This document shows positions 1,482 through 54,504 of a DNA stretch of 64,000 nt, piece after piece (within the stretch, counting starts at the first letter, position 1; the number at the start of each line of letters is the position of its first letter). This DNA is from a virus. The notes beneath the pieces were generated by a model. The model saw nothing but the letters and a program-made list of their open reading frames with translations, had not been told where the DNA came from and ran no database searches. The stretch lies in the IMG/VR virus record IMGVR_UViG_3300029131_000181. The stretch is one strand, 5' to 3'. Made by a program: the position numbers and the translations under genes.

Positions 1482-1593
1482 AAAGCCTCCGATAAAAAGA
1501 AAGAGCAGGTTCAAAACTGAGCCCGCCCTAGCCTTTCGGTCGGATTTTGCCCGACCAACGATGTTTTTTGATGCCTTTCGTTCTATATTTTGT

Positions 1594-1621
1594 ATTATAT
1601 GCAATTCGCACAGATGCACAA
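1594..1621 (-). promoter_or_regulatory. motif-class promoter, copy 1
   Basis: Minus strand TTGTGC-ATCTGTGCGAATTGCA-TATAAT (16-nt spacer, GTGCGAA core). Upstream of gene start 1481. Confidence 0.6.
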
Positions 1622-4173: not shown

Positions 4174-4243
4174 TTGTGGTCTCCTTTTCTAAAAAAGCCA
4201 CCGTTTCTGTAGGAAAACAGTGGCAATGTATAAGTGATATGGT

Positions 4244-5707: not shown

Positions 5708-6448
5708 TTAGATGTACTTTTCCCAGAAGCGCTCGAACTCTTCGTCCGGCATCTGGGCTTCGGTTTCATCCATCACGCGGTCGTAAGTATCGCTGGAAAT
5801 GTCGGTCCCGACAAAATCAGCAACAGCCTCATGTCCGCGCTTCTGGATGGCATCCTTCAGGATAGCCCAACGACATTCGTGAATGGCATCATCCAGCGTT
5901 TTGTTGCCATCAGGCTGCCAATACTCGCCTGTCTGCTGAATTCTATAAAGCTCATCCAGCGCATCATCAACATTGTTTTCGAGAAGAATATCGTCAATAA
6001 AATTGATAGGATAATCCTTGCCGTTGATTTTCACTTCTGCATAACTGAACGAGTCATCATTATCGGGGCTTGCGCAGCATTCGACAGCAAAAACTTCATG
6101 GGTTTTGCGGTTGGCTTTGCATGGCAGATTGAACATTGCACCGGAATCAAAGCAGGACTCAATGCAGGCATTGACCACATCGCTTACGGGAGACTCTGCA
6201 GCCTCCTGATATTCCGGCATGTGCCAGATGTCGATGCTTGCCTTGTTGGTATCCTCAATGTTGCGGACCTTCAAGACACGGACACCCTTCTTCTCCATGT
6301 GAATGACGGCACGGCACAGGTCCACACGGATTTCGTGTGAATCCATAATGGTGCCACGGTCATCCTTAGGTAGGAAGATTTCGATAACTTTGTTGATATC
6401 GGGGGTTTCGGCGACGAAATAGACTTTGTCATCGTGAATTTTGAACAT
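5708..6448 (-). CDS. hypothetical protein
   Basis: ORF 5708-6472 trimmed to MFKIHDD (AAGGAG 9 nt upstream). Acidic, no motif recognised. Confidence 0.65.
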   Translation of the reverse strand: MFKIHDDKVYFVAETPDINKVIEIFLPKDDRGTIMDSHEIRVDLCRAVIHMEKKGVRVLKVRNIEDTNKASIDIWHMPEYQEAAESPVSDVVNACIESCFDSGAMFNLPCKANRKTHEVFAVECCASPDNDDSFSYAEVKINGKDYPINFIDDILLENNVDDALDELYRIQQTGEYWQPDGNKTLDDAIHECRWAILKDAIQKRGHEAVADFVGTDISSDTYDRVMDETEAQMPDEEFERFWEKYI

Positions 6449-6473
6449 TGCATTACGCTCCTTCTTGTTCATA

Positions 6474-6514
6474 CAAAAAGGGCGGGCTCCCTAAAAACAG
6501 GAAGTCCGCCCTTT
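6474..6514 (-). terminator. leader hairpin + U-run between promoter and RBS
   Basis: Minus strand AAGGGCGG-loop-CCCGCCCTTTTTGT, immediately before the AAGGAG RBS of gene 6448. Confidence 0.6.
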
Positions 6515-6585
6515 AAGCGAAATTGTGAATGTACGAAAGGCATAAAACCCTTTCGATATAGAATGTTATCTATCGTACAATTTTT

Positions 6586-6613
6586 ATTGTAGTCGGTTCG
6601 CACAGCTTGTCGA
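6586..6613 (-). promoter_or_regulatory. motif-class promoter, copy 2
   Basis: TCGACA-AGCTGTGCGAACCGAC-TACAAT on the minus strand. Confidence 0.55.
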
Positions 6614-6631: not shown

Positions 6632-7792
6632 TTATGGTTTGCAAATCCCACACGCCGAATACCCTTCCTGGATGAGCTCATCGCGGGGCCCCATATAGTC
6701 GATTCGATTCTTTTGACTCATCGATTCGACTGCAGAGCAATCGGGTTTGTGAAACTTCATAGTGCTCGTGTTCAGAACGTATGTCTCGTCTATGACAAGT
6801 GAAGCTTTGTCCTGTTCATCCTTGGAATCTGCAGCACTACCGGCTTCAATCCGATTTTCATCATGATATTCACCGGAAGTGAAACTTACCTCTTTGCCAT
6901 CCGAGGTGCAGTAAATATCACCCAGCAGGTCTGTGCGATAAACCTCGACACCTTTGTTTTGCAACTTGTCGAGTGTTTCCTGATGTGGATGACCGTAACT
7001 GTTCCCTGTGCCACAAGAAATCACAGCATATGTTGGATTTACCGCATCCAGAAAAGCCTCTGAGGTAGATGTACTTGAGCCATGATGCCCTACTTTCAGA
7101 ACTGTTGACTGAATGTCTTGTCCCGATGCAAGTATCACGTTTTCCGCTTCCTGTTCCGCATCTCCGGTAAAGAGGAACGAGGTGTCTCCATAGACAATAC
7201 GCAAAACAATCGAAGTATTGTTCGTGTCATCGGGAACAGAATTAACACCAACTATCGTGAATTCTGCTTTCCCTAGAGTATAAGTGTCTCCCACATCCGG
7301 TATCGTGATGCCTCCGCCTTTCTGTTCCGCGTGGCTTGCAAAGTCCCGAAATGCTTTGCTGTCGTATTCTGTCACAGGGCATAGAGTCATGTCCGCAGTG
7401 ACGGCCTCAAAGGCACCGGACAAGCCGCCGATGTGGTCTTCGTGCGCGTGAGTCCCAACGACATAATCCAGGTGCCCATCGGTTTCACGCTGCATAACAG
7501 AATATAAGAGGTTAGAATCATCGACATTACCGCCATCAATAAGCATTGAGTGGCCGTCGCAGGTGATAAGGGCGGAATCCGCCTGCCCTACGTCTATAAA
7601 GTGAATGGTAAAGCTGCCGTCCACCGAACCGCCAGCCGTCTGTTCACTGCTTGCAGTGCTTTCTGAGACGACCCCGGTGCTGGATGGACTTTCCGATATT
7701 ATCGGATTCTGACCGCAGCCGGTGAAGCTGAGTGCAAGGAGCGTAGCGATGATTGCCGCCGTGCTCCGGAATAGATTGTTTTTGAGTTTCAT
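6632..7792 (-). CDS. MBL-fold metallo-hydrolase lipoprotein (ComEC C-terminal-domain-like)
   Basis: Lipobox LALSFTGCGQ. HFIDVGQADSALI..GTHAHEDHIGG..GHHGS metallo-beta-lactamase motifs. C-terminal Cys/His cluster HKPDCSAV..CGICKP. Confidence 0.9.
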   Translation of the reverse strand: MKLKNNLFRSTAAIIATLLALSFTGCGQNPIISESPSSTGVVSESTASSEQTAGGSVDGSFTIHFIDVGQADSALITCDGHSMLIDGGNVDDSNLLYSVMQRETDGHLDYVVGTHAHEDHIGGLSGAFEAVTADMTLCPVTEYDSKAFRDFASHAEQKGGGITIPDVGDTYTLGKAEFTIVGVNSVPDDTNNTSIVLRIVYGDTSFLFTGDAEQEAENVILASGQDIQSTVLKVGHHGSSTSTSEAFLDAVNPTYAVISCGTGNSYGHPHQETLDKLQNKGVEVYRTDLLGDIYCTSDGKEVSFTSGEYHDENRIEAGSAADSKDEQDKASLVIDETYVLNTSTMKFHKPDCSAVESMSQKNRIDYMGPRDELIQEGYSACGICKP

Positions 7793-7809
7793 ACTTTTTC
7801 TCCTTTCAA

Positions 7810-7850
7810 CAAAAAAAGCGGACCTACCCCGCTATGGGATAAGTCCGCTT
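7810..7850 (-). terminator. leader hairpin + U-run between promoter and RBS
   Basis: Minus strand AAGCGGAC-loop-GTCCGCTTTTTTTGTTGAAAGGAG, followed by ATG 7792. Confidence 0.65.
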
Positions 7851-7901
7851 AAAATACAGATTGTGAATCCTACTGATTTTTAGTATCTGTTCACATTTTA
7901 T

Positions 7902-7929
7902 ATTGTACGGCGTTCGTATATTTTGGCAA
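7902..7929 (-). promoter_or_regulatory. motif-class promoter, copy 3 (degenerate core)
   Basis: TTGCCA-AAATATACGAACGCCG-TACAAT. Confidence 0.45.
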
Positions 7930-14577: not shown

Positions 14578-14760
14578 CGGACTTCCAACTTTTCACGGGT
14601 TGCCCCGTTACTCAGTATGGATTTCTGCTTCATAGAGCGAGCTTACCGCAAGCCGCAGCTCTTGATAGAGGCTCGCTCTCCACAGACTTTAAGATTCGGT
14701 CGTCCTGACCGTACTGTTCGCCTGTGGTTATGAGGCGGCTGGCGTAGCCAGCATGTCCAT
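14578..14760 (-). ncRNA. TnpB omega RNA / right-end region (extent approximate)
   Basis: GC-rich nested hairpins overlapping and following the tnpB 3' end (GAGAGCGAGCC...GGCTCGCTCTA, CGGGGCAACCCG). By analogy to characterised TnpB loci. Confidence 0.5.
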
Positions 14761-15837
14761 TCCTTTCTTTAGAATGTTTTCTGCTGCATTTTTATCCCTA
14801 TCGTGTGATGTGTTACATTTCGGACAGACCCAATGCCGAACATTGAGGTTTTTTACCTCTTTGTTTTGGTAGCCGCAGCAAGAGCAGGTCTGGCTGCTTG
14901 GATAGAAGGTTGGTATTTTTACAACTACTCTTCCTGCCCAACTGGATTTATAATCAAGTTGTCGGAAGAACTCTCCCCAAGAAACATCGGAAATACTTTT
15001 AGCAAGGTTATGATTGCGAACCATACCATTTACATTGAGGTCTTCTACACAGATGATTTGGTTTTCTTTCACCAGTGTAGATGACAACTTGTGTAGGGCA
15101 TCTTTTCGCTTATTGGTCACTTTTTCGTGGCAGCAAGCCACCTTGATACGTTGCTTCTCCCAGTTGGCAGAACCTTTCTTTTTGCGTGACAGCTTTTTCT
15201 GCTCACGCTTTAGTTTAGCTTCCGCTTTCTGAAGATATTTATTGTTTGGATATTCTTTTCCATTGCTGTCAACAGCAAAAGATTTGATGCCAACATCTAA
15301 ACCGATGACGGTATCTTTAACCGGAAGCGGCATTACTTCTACTTTGCAAAGAATACTTACATAGTATTTGCCGCTTGCTGAGCGACGGATTGTTGCCTTA
15401 CAGATGCGTCCCTCAATGTTGCGACTCTTACGATAACGCATCTTCCCAAGTGTCGGAAGCTGAATGTACTTATCGTCAACTTTAATGCTTTTTGCTTTTG
15501 TAGTTGTATAGCTTTCTTCTCCCCGTTTTCGTTTGAATTGGGGGAACCCTTTACCGTCTTCGAAAAAGCCTTTATAGGCATTATTTAACTGACGACAGCT
15601 ATATTTGAGTGCTTGACTATCTACTTCAGCAAGCCAAGGAAGATAAGTTTTCATCTGAGGAAGCAGATTTTGTGTATCAATATAGCTCATACTTTCACCG
15701 CGCCGTTGATAAGCTTTTATACGCCTATCTAGCATAGAGTTATATACAAAACGGCAGCAGCCGAGCGTTTTATTGATTTTGACTTTCTGTTCTTCTGTTG
15801 GCTCTAGCCGAAATTTATAGCCTTTATGTACTTTCAA
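14728..15837 (-). CDS. tnpB: TnpB (OrfB) RNA-guided nuclease
   Basis: [18 protein letters not shown]-terminus, RuvC motifs ([26 protein letters not shown]) and zinc ribbon CSCCG..CPKCN. TTG start with AGGAGG RBS. Confidence 0.95.
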
Positions 15838-15921: not shown

Positions 15922-15969
15922 AACAAACAAAATGCCCCGGCAGCATCCAATTCAGAAGCCGCCAGGGCA
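15922..15969 (-). terminator. leader hairpin + U-run downstream of promoter copy 4
   Basis: Minus strand TGCCCTGGCGGC-loop-GCTGCCGGGGCATTTTGTTTGTTAAGGAG. Two G:U pairs are valid only in the minus-strand RNA. Confidence 0.55.
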
Positions 15970-15991
15970 CAATTCTTATCTTATTAGGGTT

Positions 15992-16019
15992 ATTATATCT
16001 GATTCGCACAGATGTGCAA
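15992..16019 (-). promoter_or_regulatory. motif-class promoter, copy 4
   Basis: TTGCAC-ATCTGTGCGAATCAGA-TATAAT. Now separated from the helicase gene by the tnpB element. Confidence 0.6.
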
Positions 16020-16550: not shown

Positions 16551-16958
16551 TCACTTACCACCTTTTCCAAATTTCGAGGCATTTCCCGGATAAATCGCAT
16601 AGCCCGTGCGATAATCAACGCTATCGTCTCGGTATACGAGCTCTACATTCGACATGCTGGTATAAAAGACTTTATCACGATAACGGCTATCGTTGATTTC
16701 AAACTTGATGTTTTGCCCGTTGTCCACGATTTCGTAGCTTACAAGAGCAGATACAGTCCAGATGTTATCATAGCGAAAATGAATGTAATTGTATTCCGGT
16801 TCCGTATCAGCGCTTTCCGGTGTAGCCAGCATCTGACTCGGAATGTCTTCGAGTTCAGACATTGTGGTACTTGTCACAGTGCTGATTGCGTCCTCACAGC
16901 CAGCCAAAGGTAGAGCCAGGCAGCACAGCACCAAAGCAGTTCCAATAAATTTTTTCAT
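16551..16958 (-). CDS. small lipoprotein
   Basis: MKKFIGTALVLCCLALPLAGCED lipobox. RBS GACGGAGAAAT. Confidence 0.75.
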   Translation of the reverse strand: MKKFIGTALVLCCLALPLAGCEDAISTVTSTTMSELEDIPSQMLATPESADTEPEYNYIHFRYDNIWTVSALVSYEIVDNGQNIKFEINDSRYRDKVFYTSMSNVELVYRDDSVDYRTGYAIYPGNASKFGKGGK

Positions 16959-16981: not shown

Positions 16982-17009
16982 ATTGTACGCAGTTCGCACA
17001 AAAGAAAAA
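16982..17009 (-). promoter_or_regulatory. motif-class promoter, copy 5 (weak -35)
   Basis: TTTTTC-TTTTGTGCGAACTGCG-TACAAT. The -35 overlaps the U-run of terminator 17000-17041. Confidence 0.5.
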
Positions 17010-17041
17010 GCTACCCAACAGCCATAAGGCCACTGAGCAGC
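17000..17041 (-). terminator. terminator of short transcript
   Basis: Minus strand GCTGCTCAGTGG-loop-CTGTTGGGTAGCTTTTTCTTTT. G:U pairs occur only on the minus-strand RNA. Confidence 0.55.
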
Positions 17042-17087
17042 TTAGTGTGAATTCTATTGTGTGCATAGTATCTTTCGTACAAATTCG

Positions 17088-17115
17088 ATGGTATGAGATT
17101 CGCACGCCGGGTCAA
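17088..17115 (-). promoter_or_regulatory. motif-class promoter, copy 6
   Basis: TTGACC-CGGCGTGCGAATCTCA-TACCAT. Confidence 0.5.
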
Positions 17116-18807: not shown

Positions 18808-18927
18808 GATAGATTTCTCCTTTGTTATCAATAAAAATAAAAAAGCAGCCACCCTTCCCTCTTTTGAGGGCAAAAGCGACTGCTTTACGTTCAATGGGTA
18901 TTGAGTTGTTATTCATGAAGAATTGCT

Positions 18928-20008: not shown

Positions 20009-20044
20009 AAAACAAAAAGGACAACCTCAAAATGAGGCTGTCCT
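20009..20044 (-). terminator. leader hairpin + U-run between promoter copy 7 and gene
   Basis: Minus strand AGGACAGCC-loop-GGTTGTCCTTTTTGTTTT. Confidence 0.6.
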
Positions 20045-20100
20045 TGCAAAAGCGGAATGTTAAAAATAAATTGGTAAGTGGTATCTTTGATACAACATCT

Positions 20101-20128
20101 ATCATAGCCATCTCGCACACATTGTCAA
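20101..20128 (-). promoter_or_regulatory. motif-class promoter, copy 7
   Basis: TTGACA-ATGTGTGCGAGATGGC-TATGAT. Confidence 0.55.
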
Positions 20129-23284: not shown

Positions 23285-23393
23285 AAACAGCCTCCCACCG
23301 CAGTCAGCATACTACTGATTACGATGGGAGGCTCAAAACCTTTTGTGATGGTTCTATTATATCACGCCTTGCGAAAAACTCAAGGCAAATTTC
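23285..23393 (-). repeat. promoter + leader-hairpin cassette, copy B
   Basis: TTGAGT-N16-TATAAT with a TGA extension (-10 at 23356-23361). An 18-bp imperfect hairpin at 23291-23331 is followed by CTGTTTATTTT and the RBS. Confidence 0.7.
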
Positions 23394-23399
23394 AATAAC

Positions 23400-29832: not shown

Positions 29833-29868
29833 TAAAAAATCCTATGCAGAATCTCTCTGCATAGGATG
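29833..29868 (-). terminator. hairpin + U-run directly before RBS of gene 29813
   Basis: Minus strand ATCCTATGCAGAGAGATTCTGCATAGGATTTTTTATTAAAGAGGG. Confidence 0.65.
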
Positions 29869-30111
29869 CCTTTTTACTTATTTGAATAAGGCTGTTTATT
29901 TCTTCCGTCTGAATCTATTATGTCACGGGCTGGTCCCCACAAAAAAATGAGCGTTAAATGTGCGGAAACGCACAAAAAACGCACGCACACATTTTTTGAA
30001 TGATGCGTGCGTTTATGATAGCTTTTATTTAATGAAATGAGAGAATATATAGTGGCACTTCAGAGTAGGGCTTTCTGCTTTCCCCTGTACCCTGTCGTTG
30101 ATGGATGCTTT

Positions 30112-30246
30112 TCATTTGCGCCCGCACTTGGTGCAGACCCAGTAAACAGCATTTGTGCCGGAAGCTGTTACCTGCATCGGGTCGATGCGGGTGTTGAGCT
30201 TACGGTTCCAGTTGTCGCGCAGTTCCGGATGAAATTTAGAAAACAC
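30112..30246 (-). pseudogene. orphan single zinc-ribbon repeat fragment
   Basis: Read by eye: ..FSKFHPELRDNWNRKLNTRIDPMQVTASGTNAVYWVCTKCGRK*. Matches the HPEL..W..N...DP......S...V.W.C.KCG unit of the 622-aa protein. No ATG or RBS. Confidence 0.55.
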
Positions 30247-30278
30247 AAAAAGAAGCCGCAGAAACCTATCCTCTGCGG
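30247..30278 (-). terminator. rho-independent terminator just downstream of promoter copy 10
   Basis: Minus strand CCGCAGAGGATAGGTTTCTGCGGCTTCTTTTT. Confidence 0.65.
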
Positions 30279-30304
30279 CTACACTTATTTATCTTATATT
30301 TCCT

Positions 30305-30332
30305 ATCATATCCAATTCGCACGGATGCACAA
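30305..30332 (-). promoter_or_regulatory. motif-class promoter, copy 10
   Basis: TTGTGC-ATCCGTGCGAATTGGA-TATGAT. Confidence 0.5.
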
Positions 30333-32480: not shown

Positions 32481-33812
32481 GTGAAAATCACTTCCAGCTA
32501 TGCTGTGGAAATCAAAAAGCAGAAAATGTTCGACAATACTATAAAGATTTATCGCGAAGCCGTTTCTTTCTTGATTGGTTGTTTTAACAAAGAATGGGAT
32601 TCTATTCAAAAAGTAGAGGGTGCCAAATCTCGAAAGAGTTTTGCCGAGAAGTTAATTCATACTACAAAATACAGCACTGCTAAATATGATTTCGATGCCA
32701 AGTTTTATAAGTTCCCTAGTTACCTGCGCAGAGCGGCTATTCAAGCAGCACTCGGCTCTGTAAGCAGCTACTACAGTAGCCATAAGAACTGGGAAGCAAA
32801 CGGCAAGGTTGACAGGGAGCCAAAACTTCAATGCGATAGATTTTGCTTCCCGGCTTTTTATAAGACCGTTATGTATGAGGAAAGCAACAAACCAAACCAG
32901 TGCTATCTGAAGCTGTATAAAAACAATGACTGGGTTTGGGTTCCTATCGCAATGCGTGCCACCGATGTCAAATACATCACGAAATACTGGTCACATTGCG
33001 AAAAGAGTGCTCCTGCACTCGAAAAGAAGTACGGGAAGTATTTCCTACGCTTTGCCTTCGAGGAAGAGGTAAAACTCTCCGAAACTGAAATTCAAGACAG
33101 GCGTATCTGCGCTGTAGACCTTGGTCTCAATACTGACGCCGTGTGCAGCATCATGACTGCCGATGGAACTGTCCTTGCAAGAAAATTTATCAATTTTGCA
33201 AGTGAAAAAGACCATCTGTATCATGTGCTCAACCGTATTAAGCGTAAGCAAAGAGAACATGGACCTAAGAGTGCTGCTGCTATGTGGCGTTACGCCAAAG
33301 CCTTGAATAACGATATAGCGAAAAAGGTTGCTGCTGCGATTACTGAATTTGCTGTGCTTTATTCTGTAGATGTGATTGTTTTTGAACATTTGTCATTTAC
33401 AGGCAAAAAGCACGGTGGCAGTAAGGCACAGAAGCTGTCGATGTGGAAGCGTAATTCCATACAGGATTATGTGGAACACAAGGCGCACCGCTGCGGTATC
33501 CGGATTTCGCGTATCTGTGCTTGGGGGACAAGCAAACTCGCCTTTGATGGCAGTGGTGCTCTCAAGCGTGATGAAACCAATCGTGCCCTTGCAACGTTTG
33601 CAAGCGGCAAACAATACAACTGCGACCTAAGTGCGAGCTACAATATTGGCGCTCGCTACTTTGTCAGAGAGTTGCTAAAACCCTTGCCAGCGATGGTAAG
33701 GTCTCAGCTTTCGGCTAATGTTCCGGATGTTGAGCGTAGAATCCAAGTTACACTTGCCACGCTTAAAGTTCTGTATCCTGAGCTTAAAAAACTCAGTACA
33801 CAGGCAGCGTAA
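32481..33812 (+). CDS. tnpB: TnpB-like RuvC nuclease lacking the zinc-finger cysteines
   Basis: 443 aa with GTG start. RuvC triad candidates are CAVDLGLNTD, VIVFEHL and NCDLSASYNIGARYF. The usual CxxC..CxxC segment is replaced by WGTSKLAFDGSGALKRDETNRALATFASGKQY. Confidence 0.8.
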   Translation: MKITSSYAVEIKKQKMFDNTIKIYREAVSFLIGCFNKEWDSIQKVEGAKSRKSFAEKLIHTTKYSTAKYDFDAKFYKFPSYLRRAAIQAALGSVSSYYSSHKNWEANGKVDREPKLQCDRFCFPAFYKTVMYEESNKPNQCYLKLYKNNDWVWVPIAMRATDVKYITKYWSHCEKSAPALEKKYGKYFLRFAFEEEVKLSETEIQDRRICAVDLGLNTDAVCSIMTADGTVLARKFINFASEKDHLYHVLNRIKRKQREHGPKSAAAMWRYAKALNNDIAKKVAAAITEFAVLYSVDVIVFEHLSFTGKKHGGSKAQKLSMWKRNSIQDYVEHKAHRCGIRISRICAWGTSKLAFDGSGALKRDETNRALATFASGKQYNCDLSASYNIGARYFVRELLKPLPAMVRSQLSANVPDVERRIQVTLATLKVLYPELKKLSTQAA

Positions 33813-38059: not shown

Positions 38060-38093
38060 AAAAAAACAAGCAGGCCCGAAATGAGCCTGCCTT
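38060..38093 (-). terminator. hairpin + U-run directly before the helicase RBS
   Basis: Minus strand AAGGCAGGCTCATTTCGGGCCTGCTTGTTTTTTTAGGTG. Confidence 0.7.
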
Positions 38094-38106
38094 ACATTTT
38101 CCCAAT

Positions 38107-38322: not shown

Positions 38323-38358
38323 AAACAAAAAGCCCCGCACAAGCAATTCATGCGGGGC
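38323..38358 (-). terminator. leader hairpin + U-run between promoter copy 11 and RBS
   Basis: Minus strand GCCCCGCATGAATTGCTTGTGCGGGGCTTTTTGTTT. Confidence 0.7.
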
Positions 38359-38391
38359 AGCGATTCGATATACTTCTACTTTATATTTGCT

Positions 38392-38419
38392 ATTGTACGC
38401 AATTCGCACAGATTAGCAA
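38392..38419 (-). promoter_or_regulatory. motif-class promoter, copy 11 (consensus-like)
   Basis: TTGCTA-ATCTGTGCGAATTGCG-TACAAT. Confidence 0.65.
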
Positions 38420-41600: not shown

Positions 41601-42239
41601 TCATAGTCCTTTGACAAAATTCGGGTCGTAGTGGGACAGGACTTCCTCGTTCAAGCTGTATTCGCAGTTGATAGTCGTTGCGTCATCCACATACATGCCT
41701 CGGTTTGCGTAGTATATTCCATCAATATAAATGGCGAACATGACGGACGGCATCAGTGCCTTTTCATTCACTGCGTAAATCAGGTATTCATCCAGATTAT
41801 CCTTGACCACCGCGCTCTTATTGATTTGGGCGATTTGCTGTCCGCCAAGAAATACAGGGCAGCATACTCCTTCTTTTCCAAAACCAATTTTGTAGCTCTG
41901 GTATTCCTCGCCATACAGCTGCATGGCGATAGAATTGTATCCTTGGAGGAATCCGGTTTTTGTATGGATGACGGAAATCTCGCCTACCCTGCGGTTGTTC
42001 TCACAGATAGCAAAAGGGTGTCTCAGAATATCTTTCGTGTTGATGCCGCGCATGTACGCCCTTGCGTCAGCAGCTGGCATGTATTGCAGCAGGAACTTGG
42101 AATCATTCAGCCGGATGCCATAACCTTGCCGCAGCACTTTCGGAATATAGTGTGCCTGCCCGATAACGGCCTTGCCTTTCACGATATCGAAGGTGAACTC
42201 ATATCCTTTCGATTTGGTTTGCTTCACAATCCATTGCAA
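41601..42239 (-). CDS. hypothetical protein
   Basis: 212 aa. TTG start 10 nt after GGAGG. Confidence 0.6.
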   Translation of the reverse strand: MQWIVKQTKSKGYEFTFDIVKGKAVIGQAHYIPKVLRQGYGIRLNDSKFLLQYMPAADARAYMRGINTKDILRHPFAICENNRRVGEISVIHTKTGFLQGYNSIAMQLYGEEYQSYKIGFGKEGVCCPVFLGGQQIAQINKSAVVKDNLDEYLIYAVNEKALMPSVMFAIYIDGIYYANRGMYVDDATTINCEYSLNEEVLSHYDPNFVKGL

Positions 42240-42667
42240 AACTCAATCGCCTCCTTTTGCCTTCTCACTCGCTGGATAACCTTGTAAATACCAGGAACCG
42301 AGAGCTGATATTTTTCGGATAGTTTCTGCACCGGCACGCCGCTCTCGTATTCTCGAAAGATATTCTCATTGCGCGGTCTTTGTCTAATTTTGATGCGCTC
42401 ATTTCTACGGTTTTCAGTCAGGCCCGCATCGTTGGCAACCATGCTGCAATATCCTTCTGCCACGTTGAATTTTGCAATCATTTCCTTGAGAGGGACACTG
42501 GCTTTGTACGCAGCAAGAATTTCGGCCTTTCTAGCATCCTCTACCTGCGCCAACTGAATTCTGGCCTCCTGTTTCGCGTCGTCTAACGCTCGATAGCATG
42601 TACGGACGCTCAACCTGTATTTTGCGGCAAGCTCCTCAATGGAATAGCCGTTGCCGTAGTCTTTCAT
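42224..42667 (-). CDS. multi-HTH repeat DNA-binding protein (fourth paralog)
   Basis: YSIEELAAKYRLSVRTCYRAL and VPVQKLSEKYQLSVPGIYKVI are the same unit type as genes 1-1481. The start is uncertain: ATG 42667 has no RBS, and an AAGGAG lies at about 42735. Confidence 0.6.
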   Translation of the reverse strand: MKDYGNGYSIEELAAKYRLSVRTCYRALDDAKQEARIQLAQVEDARKAEILAAYKASVPLKEMIAKFNVAEGYCSMVANDAGLTENRRNERIKIRQRPRNENIFREYESGVPVQKLSEKYQLSVPGIYKVIQRVRRQKEAIEFCNGL

Positions 42668-42750
42668 GATATTGCAATTTCGCTCAATCAACTTTTTGCT
42701 TGCAAATTTTGAGATGGTACTCAACTCCTTTGCTTTACGCTTTATTTCTG

Positions 42751-42778
42751 ATTGTCTGCAATTCGCACAAATGGGCAA
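42751..42778 (-). promoter_or_regulatory. motif-class promoter, copy 14
   Basis: TTGCCC-ATTTGTGCGAATTGCA-GACAAT. Confidence 0.55.
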
Positions 42779-43570: not shown

Positions 43571-43689
43571 AGGGCACTTCTTCCTTCCGTCTCAAAGACA
43601 ATTTGCCGGGACTGTCTCCCGTTGCCCGCTGCTCGCCGCGTGGAGGCTGTCTTTTGGAGCAGCTGCGCGGACAAAACCGCGCTTTTGAG

Positions 43690-46409: not shown

Positions 46410-48053
46410 TTAATCTTTGGCCTTTTTGTCTTTCATGATAGCCTTCTCTTCTTCGGTCACATCCGGTCGAAAATGAGTGACTTCCTCACCGTTGAGACTC
46501 TTCTCATGAATTAGATAGCCGCCTTCTACGCGTTCCATAGCATTGACACCTCCTTCCTTTTCACTATTCACAGGCTGTTCGCCTTGATTCATGATGTTGA
46601 TGTTGCGGTCGGTCTTTGCCTGGATGCTGTTGGCACGGACAATTTCGCCCATGTCGATTCCGGTCGCTTCTTTCACCGTCTGCATGGTTTGAGCCATCAG
46701 GATAGGAACGTTCCCGGAAACGCCGGATACGCCGGAGGCGTCACCGCCAATGATAGAAACCTTATCAATGCTGGACAAAGGCTGAGCCACGCTTTTGGCA
46801 ATGTCAGGAAGAACCTTGATGAGCATTTCAGCCACAGCCGCATCGTTATACTGCTTATATGCCTCTGCTTTCTGTTTCATGGCTTCCGCTTCAGCCAAGC
46901 CTTTCTGACGAATCGCTTCAGCTTCTGCCTTACCGACAAGTTCAATGCCTTCTGCTTCCTGCTGCTTGGAGAACTTCTGTGCCTCAGCTGCACGTTCCGC
47001 CTCATATTTCTTGGCTTCTGCCTCTTTCTGGCGGCGGTACAGGTCAGCATCTGCCTGTTTGCGGACTTCCGCATCCAGTTTGCGCTGCTGGACCTCGGCT
47101 TCCTGTGCGGCAAGGTCTACCATTTTCTTCTGCTTGGCGATTTCAGCATCCGCTTCCGCTTCTTTGATTTCTTTGGCGCGGAGATTCATCTGAATCTGAC
47201 CGGCAGCATCTGCGTCAGCCGCAGCTTTATCAGCTTCAGCTTTCAGCTTTGCCTTGGCGAGCTGCAATTCATTGTTGCGTTTTGCAATCGCAGTCTGCGC
47301 TTCAACTTCCTTGGCATTTGCAGCCATCTCAGCATCGGCCTTCGCGCAGGCTACATCACGGGCAGCCTGAGCACGGGCAATTTCAGCCTGTTTTTTCACA
47401 AGCTCTTCCTGTTCAATGCCGATAGCCTCAATGACGCCGTGGTTGTGGCCCTGAACATCCACCGCATCCCTGATATCCTGGACGTTAAAAGTCACGACCT
47501 CAAGTCCCATCTTAGCAAGGTCGGGGCGAGCATTCTCGATAACGCTCACAGCCATCTGCTTGCGGTTCGTCAGAATTTGGTCGACGGTCATGTCAGAGAC
47601 AATCTCACGCAAATTGCCCTGCAGAACGTCATTAACTTTCTCATTGATGCCCTGCTCGTTCATGCCCAGAAAGTTCGAGATGGCTGCCTGTTGGCGGGAC
47701 ATGATGTACGCCTTGGCGTCTTTCAGACCGGATGCCTTCACTTCTTCATCCAGAACGGTAGAGTTTTCGCTGTAGACTTGAATCGTGACAACAGAGTCAA
47801 TCCAGAGACTTACGCCGTTCTTCGTCTTAACACCTGTTTCAGGAGTTTTGACGTCAATTTTCAGAAGGCGCATATTTAGCCGGTCAGCCCGCTGAAGAAC
47901 GGGCAGAACAAATGTACCTTTTCCGCAAACTACTTTAGGCTTAGACAGACCAAAGCCGGTCACAACGATAGCCTCCGTGGGCGGAGCTTTCTTGTAGCAG
48001 AGAAATCCAAAGAGAATAATCAGGGCTGCCACAATCGCAATCACATATACCAT
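46410..48053 (-). CDS. flotillin-like SPFH/band-7 protein
   Basis: N-terminal TM, SPFH core (VVTGFG..VLPVLQRADRLNMRLLKIDV) and a long Ala/Glu/Lys-rich coiled-coil repeat region. Confidence 0.9.
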   Translation of the reverse strand: MVYVIAIVAALIILFGFLCYKKAPPTEAIVVTGFGLSKPKVVCGKGTFVLPVLQRADRLNMRLLKIDVKTPETGVKTKNGVSLWIDSVVTIQVYSENSTVLDEEVKASGLKDAKAYIMSRQQAAISNFLGMNEQGINEKVNDVLQGNLREIVSDMTVDQILTNRKQMAVSVIENARPDLAKMGLEVVTFNVQDIRDAVDVQGHNHGVIEAIGIEQEELVKKQAEIARAQAARDVACAKADAEMAANAKEVEAQTAIAKRNNELQLAKAKLKAEADKAAADADAAGQIQMNLRAKEIKEAEADAEIAKQKKMVDLAAQEAEVQQRKLDAEVRKQADADLYRRQKEAEAKKYEAERAAEAQKFSKQQEAEGIELVGKAEAEAIRQKGLAEAEAMKQKAEAYKQYNDAAVAEMLIKVLPDIAKSVAQPLSSIDKVSIIGGDASGVSGVSGNVPILMAQTMQTVKEATGIDMGEIVRANSIQAKTDRNINIMNQGEQPVNSEKEGGVNAMERVEGGYLIHEKSLNGEEVTHFRPDVTEEEKAIMKDKKAKD

Positions 48054-48146: not shown

Positions 48147-48174
48147 ATTGTCTGCAATTCGCACGATTCCGCAA
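48147..48174 (-). promoter_or_regulatory. motif-class promoter, copy 16
   Basis: TTGCGG-AATCGTGCGAATTGCA-GACAAT, upstream of the flotillin gene. Confidence 0.6.
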
Positions 48175-48210
48175 TAAACAAAACCCACAGGTGAGAGAAT
48201 GACCTGTGGG
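48173..48210 (-). terminator. rho-independent terminator of mini-transcript
   Basis: Minus strand CCCACAGGTCATTCTCTCACCTGTGGGTTTTGTTTATT. Confidence 0.75.
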
Positions 48211-48307
48211 CTTCGAAAAGAGGTAATTATGCGCAAGCAGACACGGCATCGATTCGTGGCGACCAACTACAATCACTACAAATGTCTCTTGCCGTTTCTC
48301 TTGTACA
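48178..48307 (-). ncRNA. candidate sRNA (promoter copy 17 to terminator)
   Basis: ~125-nt unit bounded by a motif promoter and a strong terminator. No RBS-preceded ORF. Confidence 0.4.
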
Positions 48308-48313
48308 ATTCTT

Positions 48314-48341
48314 ATTGTACGAAGTTCGCACAGCAGCGCAA
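48314..48341 (-). promoter_or_regulatory. motif-class promoter, copy 17
   Basis: TTGCGC-TGCTGTGCGAACTTCG-TACAAT. Confidence 0.55.
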
Positions 48342-53106: not shown

Positions 53107-54504
53107 TTAAGATACTTTTTCCCATGCGGGATGTATGGAATCTGCTGCTTTTACAATTTTGAGTTTTTTAAGGCTCGCGGATTTTTGACCGTTTTTTGCG
53201 GGTGCTTTGAATTCTACATTTACGGCACCCTTTTTATTGGTATGAGTGCCATGCACAATGAGAACTTTTCCGTTGAGAGAGACTAAATCACCCGGATTAA
53301 GGTTTACCTTTTTGCGTAATAGAGCGCGATGCCCTGCGTATGTCCTCTTGCCACGATATTTGTGCAGGTTTTCCGAATCCTTTTTATGGCTGCGGCTGAT
53401 TCTACCGTTGAAGAGTTTTTTTCCGGTAGCTATTTCTCCTGTACGAATGTCAATGTAGCGAGAATCATAAAACTTTTCAAGGATGCGATTATTACGCCTT
53501 ACCTTTTCATAATGTTCAAACGTACAGCGGCAGTTTGGATGAAACTCGCCCATTGCATATGCATCATTATTATGACTCTTTTCAAGATGAAGCGCGATAC
53601 GTTTTTCTTTTGTCATTGCGCCATAAGTGACGGTGACAAAATCTTTTCCAAAAGCAGCATAGAGTTCATTGACAATTTGCCACCTAACGGTGTTCATAAA
53701 AGCCGCACCGGAAAGGTCGGCAAACTTTACATTTTCTCCGAAGCCATAAAGCTTACCGCTTTTTTGGTGATTGGCAGGCGTATGGCACTTTTCGCATACC
53801 GTTAGAAGTTCGTCCAGACTGTTGCCGTGACGACCTTTCCAGTAGAACATATGATGCATATGTAAAATCGCACCTTCTGTAGCTTTACGCCCACAAACCT
53901 TACAGACATAGTTATCGCGGTAAAATACCGCTTCCCGCAAGGTTGCCAAGTTGTAGCGGGGACCTTTCTGGTAGTCTACACCTTCCGGTTTTGATTCGCC
54001 TTTCTGGATGGCTTGCAGCAACATTGTGTCGAAAGAACCAACCTCAACCGTTGCATGAGTAATGGGCATTACCGCACAATACATCTTAACAACGTTGACA
54101 TTGAGTTCTTTCTTATGTCTCAAAGATGGAGCAAGCCAACTCTCGCCGCGTTTGCGATTATCGAAACGCGGTTTACGGTAGCGCAGTCTGTTTCTTCGGG
54201 AACGACGCATCTTGCGACAATCATCGTGATGTTCCTTCTCATCCTGTAATGTATCATACTGCGCAGATACATACTCGTGAGATTGACTTTTCACACTGAT
54301 GCCGATGTAGTTGTAGCCAACATCCTCACAGATTTCGATGGGTTGTGTGTTTGTTTTGCTGTCATACAGCAGCTGGATGGTAAAAGGATGATGCTTAACG
54401 ATTTTTGCTTTTCCGTCTTTCAAGAGGCGGCGTACCTTGCCAAGACGGAAGGTAGGCATTAAGCGTTCACCACTGTTGCTGAGAACGCAAACGCAAGTGC
54501 TCAT
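53107..54504 (-). CDS. iscB: IscB RNA-guided nuclease
   Basis: N-terminal PLMP-type motif (GERLMP), RuvC-I (EDVGYNYIGISV), arginine-rich bridge helix (RRSRRNRLRYRKPRFDNR), HNH (CKVCG..HMHH..N..CEKCH), RuvC-II/III (EKSHNNDAYAM) and a C-terminal beta-rich domain. Confidence 0.9.
   Translation of the reverse strand: MSTCVCVLSNSGERLMPTFRLGKVRRLLKDGKAKIVKHHPFTIQLLYDSKTNTQPIEICEDVGYNYIGISVKSQSHEYVSAQYDTLQDEKEHHDDCRKMRRSRRNRLRYRKPRFDNRKRGESWLAPSLRHKKELNVNVVKMYCAVMPITHATVEVGSFDTMLLQAIQKGESKPEGVDYQKGPRYNLATLREAVFYRDNYVCKVCGRKATEGAILHMHHMFYWKGRHGNSLDELLTVCEKCHTPANHQKSGKLYGFGENVKFADLSGAAFMNTVRWQIVNELYAAFGKDFVTVTYGAMTKEKRIALHLEKSHNNDAYAMGEFHPNCRCTFEHYEKVRRNNRILEKFYDSRYIDIRTGEIATGKKLFNGRISRSHKKDSENLHKYRGKRTYAGHRALLRKKVNLNPGDLVSLNGKVLIVHGTHTNKKGAVNVEFKAPAKNGQKSASLKKLKIVKAADSIHPAWEKVS

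Follow-up and report, generated by a model that had tools for sequence, protein, structure and literature searches.

Promoter, short leader and terminator recur as a candidate antitermination gate in a large phage-like element of the human gut

The default product of the late promoter of phage lambda is a short, terminated RNA; the 6S RNA of lambda measures about 194 nucleotides (nt), and the pause element lies at +1 to +6. Promoters where Q and AlpA load have a binding element between the -35 and the -10. Their initially transcribed region contains a -10-like element, which induces a sigma-dependent pause, and further downstream stands an intrinsic terminator that the loaded polymerase bypasses (PMC9371919). 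Other systems depend on a leader RNA for antitermination, among them the put RNA of HK022 (PMC9378689), ConAn of Gram-positive conjugative elements (PMC8191782) and LoaP leaders (PMC12691694). Here we analyze 64,000 nt of the IMG/VR virus record IMGVR_UViG_3300029131_000181 (hereafter the window, in whose positions all coordinates are given), in which a promoter, a short RNA, a terminator and a second promoter are stacked upstream of a flotillin gene (48.3 kb) and again upstream of a lipoprotein gene (17 kb). A sequence-only reading of this DNA had taken the two short RNAs for candidate small RNAs (sRNAs). We propose that these two units are copies of an element-wide, cis-acting gate that is opened by antitermination and has its closest described counterparts in the lambda Q and AlpA loading promoters, a reading to which we assign a probability of about one half. 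By comparing sequences, we show what the architecture is and that it recurs, that the terminator and a box near the start of the transcript are coupled, and that the terminator is commonly fused to the ribosome-binding site (RBS) of the gene.

The promoters of both stacks belong to a recurring motif, TTGC-N6-GTGCGAA-N6-TAcAAT. Searching the window with GTGCGAAnTnnnnACAAT and allowing up to two mismatches gave 15 matches, where 2.3 were expected and 100 shuffles yielded at most 7. All 15 are on the minus strand, upstream of a minus-strand gene, with TTGC 10 nt further upstream. From about 1.15 Mb of related DNA retrieved by the motif we obtained 148 distinct promoter copies, 99 of which carry TTGC at -35, and in silico the motif is a -35/-10 promoter of the sigma-70 type. 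The GTGCGAA box is common to promoters without a terminator (class A) and to terminator-bearing promoters (class B). Many of the -10 regions read GCATACAAT or GCATAGAAT, which we take to resemble the CATACA-T -10 of sporulation sigma factors (sigma-E/K type), and a phage-encoded or alternative sigma factor may act at motif promoters.

The sequence-only reading had found the arrangement twice; the window in fact contains nine or more sets of promoter, short RNA and terminator. A hairpin and U-run lie 50-135 nt downstream of seven among the 15 motif promoters, and two more units, at 7929-7808 and 20128-20010, have slightly different promoters (Table 1; all stack and unit features lie on the minus strand). 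Their terminators have long GC-rich stems and good U-runs, with predicted free energies of -16 to -32 kcal/mol. Only in the two flagged units (48.3 kb and 17.1 kb) does a second motif promoter follow the terminator, and in the other seven there is no space for a promoter before the RBS or the next gene remnant. At the units at 1594, 6586, 7929 and 38392 the U-run leads straight into an RBS and start codon. Since the terminator is there fused directly to the RBS, such a unit can only be a leader whose terminator must be read through. Promoter families of related contigs are arranged alike.

Within operons headed by class-B promoters, further strong terminators, at 38062-38100, 18841-18890 and 4195-4225 on the minus strand, abut an RBS without an intervening promoter. 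The first of these (about 38062-38100) is the second terminator of its operon and touches the RBS of a gene for a 731-aa helicase; the genes after the three terminators (at 38066, 18841 and 4195) encode this helicase, a 507-aa DUF4379 protein and a 477-aa protein. At the ends of three class-A operons, by contrast, a new promoter stands behind the closing terminator (46365 to 46260, 38435 to 38392 and 20137 to 20118). In this small sample, the pattern agrees with what would be expected of processive antitermination that begins at class-B promoters. Two further leaders on the minus strand, 23287-23395 and 29837-29935, also have a terminator that touches an RBS, and their promoters do not carry the GTGCGAA motif; on the evidence of the window, the placing of a terminator before an RBS is more general in this genome than the motif class.

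The terminator-bearing promoters are marked by a short box just behind the -10. To compare the two classes, we aligned their transcribed sides, choosing promoters by the promoter motif only, and counted per sequence family. After the -10, terminator-bearing promoters have T at nt 7 (88%), a purine at nt 8, T at nt 9 (96%), A at nt 10 (98%), a purine at nt 12 and often T at nt 14, whereas the other class shows nothing at nt 9-10. TA at nt 9-10 was found in 16 of 16 families with a proximal terminator and in 1 of 26 without (Fisher p = 1e-10), and TAnnnT at nt 9-14 in 11 of 16 and 0 of 26, respectively (Fisher p = 1e-6). The -10-like box (T-R-T-A, TAnnnT) thus occupies positions 7-14 after the -10. 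As both classes prefer a pyrimidine followed by a purine at nt 7-8, the start site would be nt 8 and the box a -10-like hexamer at +2 to +7; the same preference would place the transcription start of the 48.3-kb RNA at G48306. The hexamer is TACAAG in the 48.3-kb unit and TACGAA in the 17-kb unit, and the final T is absent in both.

The intergenic region between the start of the flotillin gene (48053) and the divergent Phd gene (48422) houses the entire 48.3-kb stack. The parts that the sequence-only reading had named, here and at 17 kb, are all in place, with coordinates that were exact or a few bases off. The upstream class-B promoter has a 16-nt spacer, TGCT-GTGCGAA-CTTCG, with the box inside it, and is kept in relatives. 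It would give rise to an RNA of about 135 nt (whole-RNA fold -49.4 kcal/mol, z = -4.4) predicted to form a long 5' hairpin, an unpaired linker and a terminator with a GC-rich stem of 12-14 base pairs (bp). A simple terminator scan missed this terminator because it allowed loops of up to 8 nt and the loop here has 9 nt. As the earlier reading had also seen, the U-run overlaps the -35 of the downstream class-A promoter, whose TTGCGG begins within the run and is followed by a spacer with GTGCGAA and by GACAAT. Behind this promoter come an 85-nt 5' untranslated region (UTR), a GGAG RBS and the flotillin gene. The further link to a back-to-back Phd/PIN promoter stood in part: the divergent Phd gene is present in the window, but the arrangement is not conserved, as most relatives have DNA other than Phd/PIN upstream of the unit; in L136 and L138, for instance, the first gene upstream encodes TnpB.

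We found no conserved open reading frame (ORF) in the 48.3-kb RNA. Its sole long frame opens with GUG, where the L003-type variant reads GCG, and we rejected a small ORF on the grounds that this start is lost, no Shine-Dalgarno (SD) sequence is present and the frame crosses the terminator. The apical part of the RNA (48262-48280, minus strand) holds a direct repeat, TTGTAGT-GA-TTGTAGT. The idea that this repeat mimics a CRISPR repeat, as an RNA anti-CRISPR would, was dropped because there is no repeat-like hairpin and one copy is dispensable (in L008). An antisense promoter built on the inverted -10 (ATTGTA, which is TACAAT on the other strand) was rejected for want of a -35 at usable spacing. 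We also noted a resemblance of the CCUCUUU of this RNA to boxA.

In relatives, the 48.3-kb RNA forms a small family of its own with four versions, V1 (that of the window) to V4. V2-V4 share a closing helix of 10-12 bp, UUGUACAAGCGG/CCGCUUGUAC, and an inner hairpin with compensatory changes in the stem and a loop that displays A(A/G)CCUCUU. In V1 the CCUCUU lies in the unpaired linker, and it is kept in all four diverged versions. In V2, found in L009 and L010 next to a flotillin that is 89-90% identical, leader and terminator are followed by 58 nt without a credible promoter and then by the flotillin RBS. As these two relatives have no credible second promoter, flotillin expression there would depend on read-through. 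The apical half of V1 drifts: L008 lacks 11 nt, including one TTGTAGT copy, the L003 type has five clustered apical substitutions that are not compensatory, and fold z-scores are only -1 to -2.8. By these measures, the apical half of the 48.3-kb RNA is without visible structural constraint. A scan of viral sequences with TTGTACAAGNGNAANNNGG returned mostly chance matches and no version beyond V1-V4. In L001 (3683-3943, plus strand) and also in L003, whose flotillins are 100% and 98% identical, a HEARO/IscB omega-RNA (RF02033, 91 bits) has inserted into the flotillin 5' UTR between the class-A promoter and the RBS; the window does not have this insertion.

The 17-kb stack repeats the order of promoter, short RNA, terminator and promoter, as the sequence-only reading had stated. 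Its RNA is about 80 nt long (fold -24.2 kcal/mol, z = -2.9) and ends in a terminator with a hairpin at about 17009-17043 and a U-run at 17000-17009. The stack is retained in orthologues (L096, L101, L198, L246, L030 and L031). We could not uphold the statement that the two short RNAs have no obvious sequence in common, as they share the 5' box, UUGUACAAGAGAAAC at 48.3 kb and UUGUACGAAAGAUAC at 17 kb. The class-A promoter at 16982-17009 has no TTGC at -35 yet retains the GTGCGAA box and TACAAT, which suggests that the spacer box can stand in for a -35 and that such promoters may depend on an activator or appropriator.

Judged by its sequence profile, the 17-kb RNA is a truncated member of a widespread group that we call GUACGA leaders. 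The pattern "-10, N6, TGTACGAnnGATA" matched more than 115 stretches of viral contigs, with up to six copies in 11 kb, and 133 distinct copies of the leader were obtained, 124 of them with a terminator, mostly 90-110 nt from the -10. Their consensus runs from the 5' box UUGUACGAUAGAUAMC through two variable hairpins and UCGUACAAUUCACAAUUYYGC to the terminator AGGCRGACUYMCC...GG..CYGCCUUUUU. In 96 of the 124 terminated copies, the terminator is followed by an RBS and start codon at no more than 70 nt, and in another 8 at 70-150 nt, 104 in all. A promoter follows the terminator in 10, of which 8 are orthologues of the 17-kb locus. The last 10 fell outside our automatic criteria, and the eight that we inspected mostly have an RBS-like sequence and a start codon near the terminator. 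In nhmmer searches with the family profile, the canonical 6.5-kb unit scored E = 3.7e-19, the 17-kb unit E = 2.5e-8 and the 3' half of the unit at 7808-7929 E = 1.7e-7. The 48.3-kb unit was not detected by this profile (E > 10) and has only the 5' box and the architecture in common with the family.

The 5' domain of the GUACGA leader is predicted to be a three-way junction made of helix P1 (UUGUACGA/UCGUACAA), helix P2 and a variable helix P3, followed by the linker AAUUCACAAUU. With 38 family members aligned by MAFFT, the variable hairpins fell out of register and RNAalifold resolved no structure but the terminator; the 5' domain was then modelled from a structure given by hand and a covariance model. 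This model had 130 matches (83 distinct) and, over the whole window, found only the 6.5-kb unit (E = 1.8e-7; leader fold z = -5.5) and neither of the flagged units. In an alignment that was itself fitted to the model, 94.4% of cells are paired, as opposed to 13-44% when the partners are slid. All four P3 pairs have changed on both sides among the 83 distinct sequences, and P1 and P2 are almost invariant and uninformative; the terminator covaries as well. The UYYGC of the linker can pair with the GCRGA of the terminator 5' arm (88 copies), and the non-pairing combination occurs 2 times where about 15 are expected, a count in which kinship is uncontrolled. This candidate antiterminator helix has 5-6 bp against 12-14 bp in the terminator stem and is possibly a weak antiterminator; none was found in the 48.3-kb unit.

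For the two loci, searches of Rfam 15 at E values up to 10 returned matches no better than chance (P37, CRISPR-DR, trpB, ctRNA), and the whole window at the gathering threshold gave only an HDV-like ribozyme elsewhere. Judging by these searches and by its copy number, the GUACGA leader is a new and abundant leader RNA family that is absent from Rfam. A scan of contigs with the 14-nt core TGTACGATAGATANC returned chance matches, none of at least 120 loci matching the hidden Markov model of the family, and yielded no information on hosts or prophages.

From these observations we propose how the gate would work. It would consist of the element's own sigma-70-like promoter with the conserved GTGCGAA in its spacer, a -10-like repeat (T-R-T-A, in most cases TAnnnT) fixed near +2 to +7, a short leader and a strong intrinsic terminator just ahead of the gene. 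By default, RNA polymerase would halt at the terminator and release a leader of 55-135 nt; this is the "mini-transcript" of the sequence-only reading, and it would be a by-product comparable to the short RNA of the lambda late promoter. Gene expression from gated promoters would then require read-through. Most likely, a factor would load on polymerase at the promoter-proximal box and render it resistant to terminators, as lambda Q, 21Q, 82Q and AlpA do, and the modified polymerase would also run through the terminators without promoters that lie later in those operons. The flotillin and lipoprotein genes, which have a plain motif promoter behind the gate, would receive ungated transcription together with a gated contribution. 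We infer the pausing, the factor loading and the read-through by analogy with the described systems.

The likeness to Q and AlpA loading sites extends to a sigma-70-type promoter, a conserved element between -35 and -10, an early -10-like repeat, a nearby intrinsic terminator, a short terminated RNA as the default product and further terminators downstream for a modified polymerase to pass. In contrast to those systems, which have one or few such sites, the gates number at least nine in 64 kb and probably dozens per genome, their spacer box is also present in terminator-less promoters, many of their leaders carry a conserved RNA domain, and the host of the element is probably a Firmicute. Like N/nut, put, ConAn and LoaP, the gates place a structured RNA right after the promoter, ahead of terminators to be bypassed, in a mobile element. 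Unlike these, gate leaders are multi-copy, with many paralogues in a genome before unrelated genes, they have no similarity to these systems in sequence or in Rfam, and several of their families are unstructured apart from the terminator. Lambda OOP, P22 sar and plasmid countertranscripts are likewise discrete promoter-to-terminator units of about 80-130 nt with stem-loop, single strand and terminator, but they are antisense to a specific gene, whereas the gates have no convergent transcription and the unit is normally a sense leader fused to its gene.

Several observations weigh against a gate of the Q/AlpA type. The GUACGA RNA has a three-way junction with covariation in one helix, and a purely DNA-loaded mechanism needs none. 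Class-A promoters also have the GTGCGAA box, so its presence is not enough to mark a loading site. Non-motif promoters precede the leaders at 23287 and 29837, the first of which has no TRTA box, and one unit of the window (7808-7929) has TGTG in place of TGTA. The 16 terminator-bearing families are related, and common descent could account for part of the link between box and terminator. Among the approximately 50 proteins of the window, Pfam identified no Q-, AlpA- or NusG-like protein, which is weak evidence given that the window is about a quarter of the genome. As no factor was found, the gates are only candidate members of the Q/AlpA class. Three paralogous Mor-family proteins with repeated HTH_23/HTH_28 matches (954-1481, 446-964 and 42224-42778, minus strand), two of them encoded directly behind the unit at 1594, may bind the promoter box; two of the Mor-like proteins, searched against solved structures, returned nothing relevant.

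A bolder form of this proposal is that, in a widespread group of large gut phage-like elements, each genome harbours dozens of loading promoters in the style of Q/AlpA, which together form a regulon; every one would have a box at +2 to +7 and a terminator touching the RBS, and many a GUACGA leader that may be the RNA half of a bipartite antiterminator. We put this forward tentatively and regard it as possible but rather doubtful. If true, it would be a Q-like programme of antitermination at many sites across the genome, the first beyond the lambdoid phages of Proteobacteria.

The conserved domain of the GUACGA leaders, with its P1, P2, variable P3 and linker, raises the alternative that the gate operates on RNA. 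A protein or ligand that binds the nascent leader would override the terminator, as in N/nut, LicT/RAT, ConAn or a riboswitch, or the leader would act alone, as HK022 put does, and the 5' box would be conserved as RNA. The high proportion of paired cells (94%), the double changes in P3, the scarcity of non-pairing combinations between linker and terminator arm, and the A(A/G)CCUCUU loop that V2-V4 present on a compensatory stem are all consistent with such a gate. Yet several class-B families are only about 55 nt long, unstructured apart from the terminator, and retain the box. P1 and P2 vary too little to inform on covariation, in an alignment that was itself fitted to the model, kinship may account for the correlation between linker and terminator, the helix that this correlation describes is far shorter than the terminator stem, and neither flagged RNA fits the three-way-junction model. 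On balance, we consider control by the RNA unlikely. In the sRNA reading, which builds on the sequence-only one, the two stacked units are true genes for trans-acting RNAs whose targets are phage or host mRNAs; a CU-rich linker might, for instance, mask ribosome-binding sites. This reading is sound in that each unit has its own promoter and strong terminator, holds no conserved ORF and is expected to yield a discrete short RNA. The downstream gene has a separate promoter, so the RNA is not needed as a leader, and an unpaired CCUCUU is kept in four diverged versions. The 48.3-kb linker also pairs better with 69 start regions (median -10.1 kcal/mol) than with gene interiors (-7.6 kcal/mol; p = 9e-7), a performance equalled by 4% of shuffled seeds. 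Against it, the great majority of copies of the architecture are leaders fused to an RBS, and L009 and L010 lack the second promoter. Moreover, structural constraint is not visible in the apical half of the 48.3-kb RNA, a seed comparable to the CCUCUU linker is missing from the 17-kb RNA, the linker's complementarity appears to be generic anti-SD pairing without a specific conserved target, Rfam holds no match, and the link to the toxin-antitoxin promoter is not conserved. We regard sRNA genes as quite unlikely.

We weighed two further explanations. The units could be constitutive dampers or insulators, in which leaky terminators fix a low level of expression and block read-in from upstream, with no factor involved and the short RNAs as waste. 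The genome is indeed tightly packed and co-oriented, with terminators abutting promoters throughout, and the two terminator-before-RBS leaders behind non-motif promoters, one of them (23287) lacking the box, are in keeping with this. Dampers would leave unexplained the near-invariant box beside the terminators and the conserved leader domain, and the long GC-rich stems and good U-runs predict efficient termination before large genes such as those for helicases; the explanation seems improbable to us. Alternatively, the shuffling of cassettes could have set a promoter with its gene behind a leader-terminator that had lost its own gene, leaving the upstream unit without function. A decayed gene fragment lies behind the unit at 30305, a TnpB element parts the unit at 15992 from its gene, the junctions of terminator and promoter are the same as at ordinary operon borders, and the apical part of the 48.3-kb RNA drifts. 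Against orphaned remnants, both stacks are intact, promoter included, in many relatives, the lipoprotein locus even in the diverged L198 and L246, and in L009 and L010 no source of flotillin transcription other than the flotillin-type leader is visible. We hold this origin to be very improbable.

Table 1. Positions of the two stacks, the remaining promoter-leader-terminator units and the flotillin gene in the window.
Feature	Position	Strand	Details
Upstream class-B motif promoter, 48.3-kb stack	48314..48341	-	-35 TTGCGC 48336-48341, box GTGCGAA 48325-48331, -10 TACAAT 48314-48319
Initial-transcribed box TTGTACAAG	48300..48308	-	contains -10-like hexamer TACAAG at 48300-48305
Long imperfect 5' hairpin of 48.3-kb RNA	48231..48306	-	predicted fold
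Unpaired linker AUAAUUACCUCUUUUCG	48214..48230	-	predicted fold; anti-SD-like CCUCUU inside
Intrinsic terminator	48173..48215	-	stem AAGCCCACAGGU / ACCUGUGGGUUU, 9-nt loop, U-run UUUUGUUUAUU; predicted core free energy -18 kcal/mol
Downstream class-A motif promoter	48147..48174	-	no initial-transcribed box, no proximal terminator
Flotillin/SPFH gene served by the stack	46410..48053	-	Pfam Band_7 and Flot
Class-B promoter of 17-kb stack	17088..17115	-	TTGACC, GTGCGAA in spacer, -10 TACCAT
Short leader RNA and terminator, 17-kb stack	17000..17082	-	5' box UUGUACGAAAGAUAC, AUUCACAC linker
Class-A promoter before lipoprotein gene (16551-16958)	16982..17009	-	terminator U-run fills -35 position
Class-B unit before Mor-like HTH gene 954-1481	1488..1621	-	unit at 1594
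Canonical GUACGA leader unit: promoter, three-way-junction leader, terminator	6470..6613	-	RBS and gene 5708-6472 directly after
Class-B unit, promoter variant ATACGAA, box TGTG	7808..7929	-	terminator touches RBS of metallo-beta-lactamase-fold gene 6632-7792
Class-B unit at 15992	15924..16019	-	TnpB element between unit and helicase gene in window
Diverged class-B unit	20010..20128	-	TTGACA, GTGCGAG, TATGAT, box TGTA, then terminator
Class-B unit at 30305	30236..30332	-	decayed DUF4379 gene fragment follows
Class-B unit at 38392	38324..38419	-	terminator touches RBS of 66-aa gene

The surroundings of two units bear marks of rearrangement. The TnpB gene at 14.7-15.8 kb is inserted between the class-B leader-terminator at 15992 and the helicase gene, which directly follows the orthologous leader in L101 and a similar, separately clustered leader in L106 and L107. 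Behind the unit at 30305, the decayed fragment of a DUF4379 zinc-ribbon gene (30080-30236, minus strand; ...WVCTKCGRK*) is evidence of cassette turnover. IscB-like (RRXRR plus HNH) and TnpB-type genes lie at 53107-54504 (minus strand), 14728-15837 (minus strand) and 32481-33812 (plus strand).

The element itself is, by its relatives, a large (140-390 kb) phage-like genome from the human gut: the window groups with IMG/VR viral contigs in this size range and with contigs of 200-250 kb from gut metagenomes. A BLAST search with 46.0-50.7 kb found no match in INPHARED (phage) or PLSDB (plasmid), and the flotillin protein is indexed in 591 blocks of an assembly collection. The surrounding genes are accessory, defence and anti-defence genes, including those for helicases, restriction and methylase enzymes, GmrSD, AcrVA2-like, NADAR and DUF4379 proteins, toxin-antitoxin pairs, TnpB and IscB; the window has no tRNA genes. 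The HDV-like self-cleaving ribozyme (43594-43663, minus strand; Rfam HDV-F-prausnitzii, 60.4 bits against a gathering threshold of 44) sits between the vWA stop codon and the next RBS, right after a hairpin without a U-run, and would cut the transcript of the flotillin-vWA operon. The host is probably a Firmicute, judging only by the name of this ribozyme family, which comes from Faecalibacterium.

For those who annotate phage genomes, our analysis carries the warning that a promoter-to-terminator mini-unit is not automatically an sRNA gene. The box of 4-6 nt offers a concrete and testable handle on the proposed mechanism, as its mutation should abolish read-through. If the gates work as we propose, a common element of the gut would time or condition the expression of many of its accessory and anti-defence genes through read-through and not through the choice of promoter, and control of the Q/AlpA type would extend to many sites per genome and to a new group of hosts.

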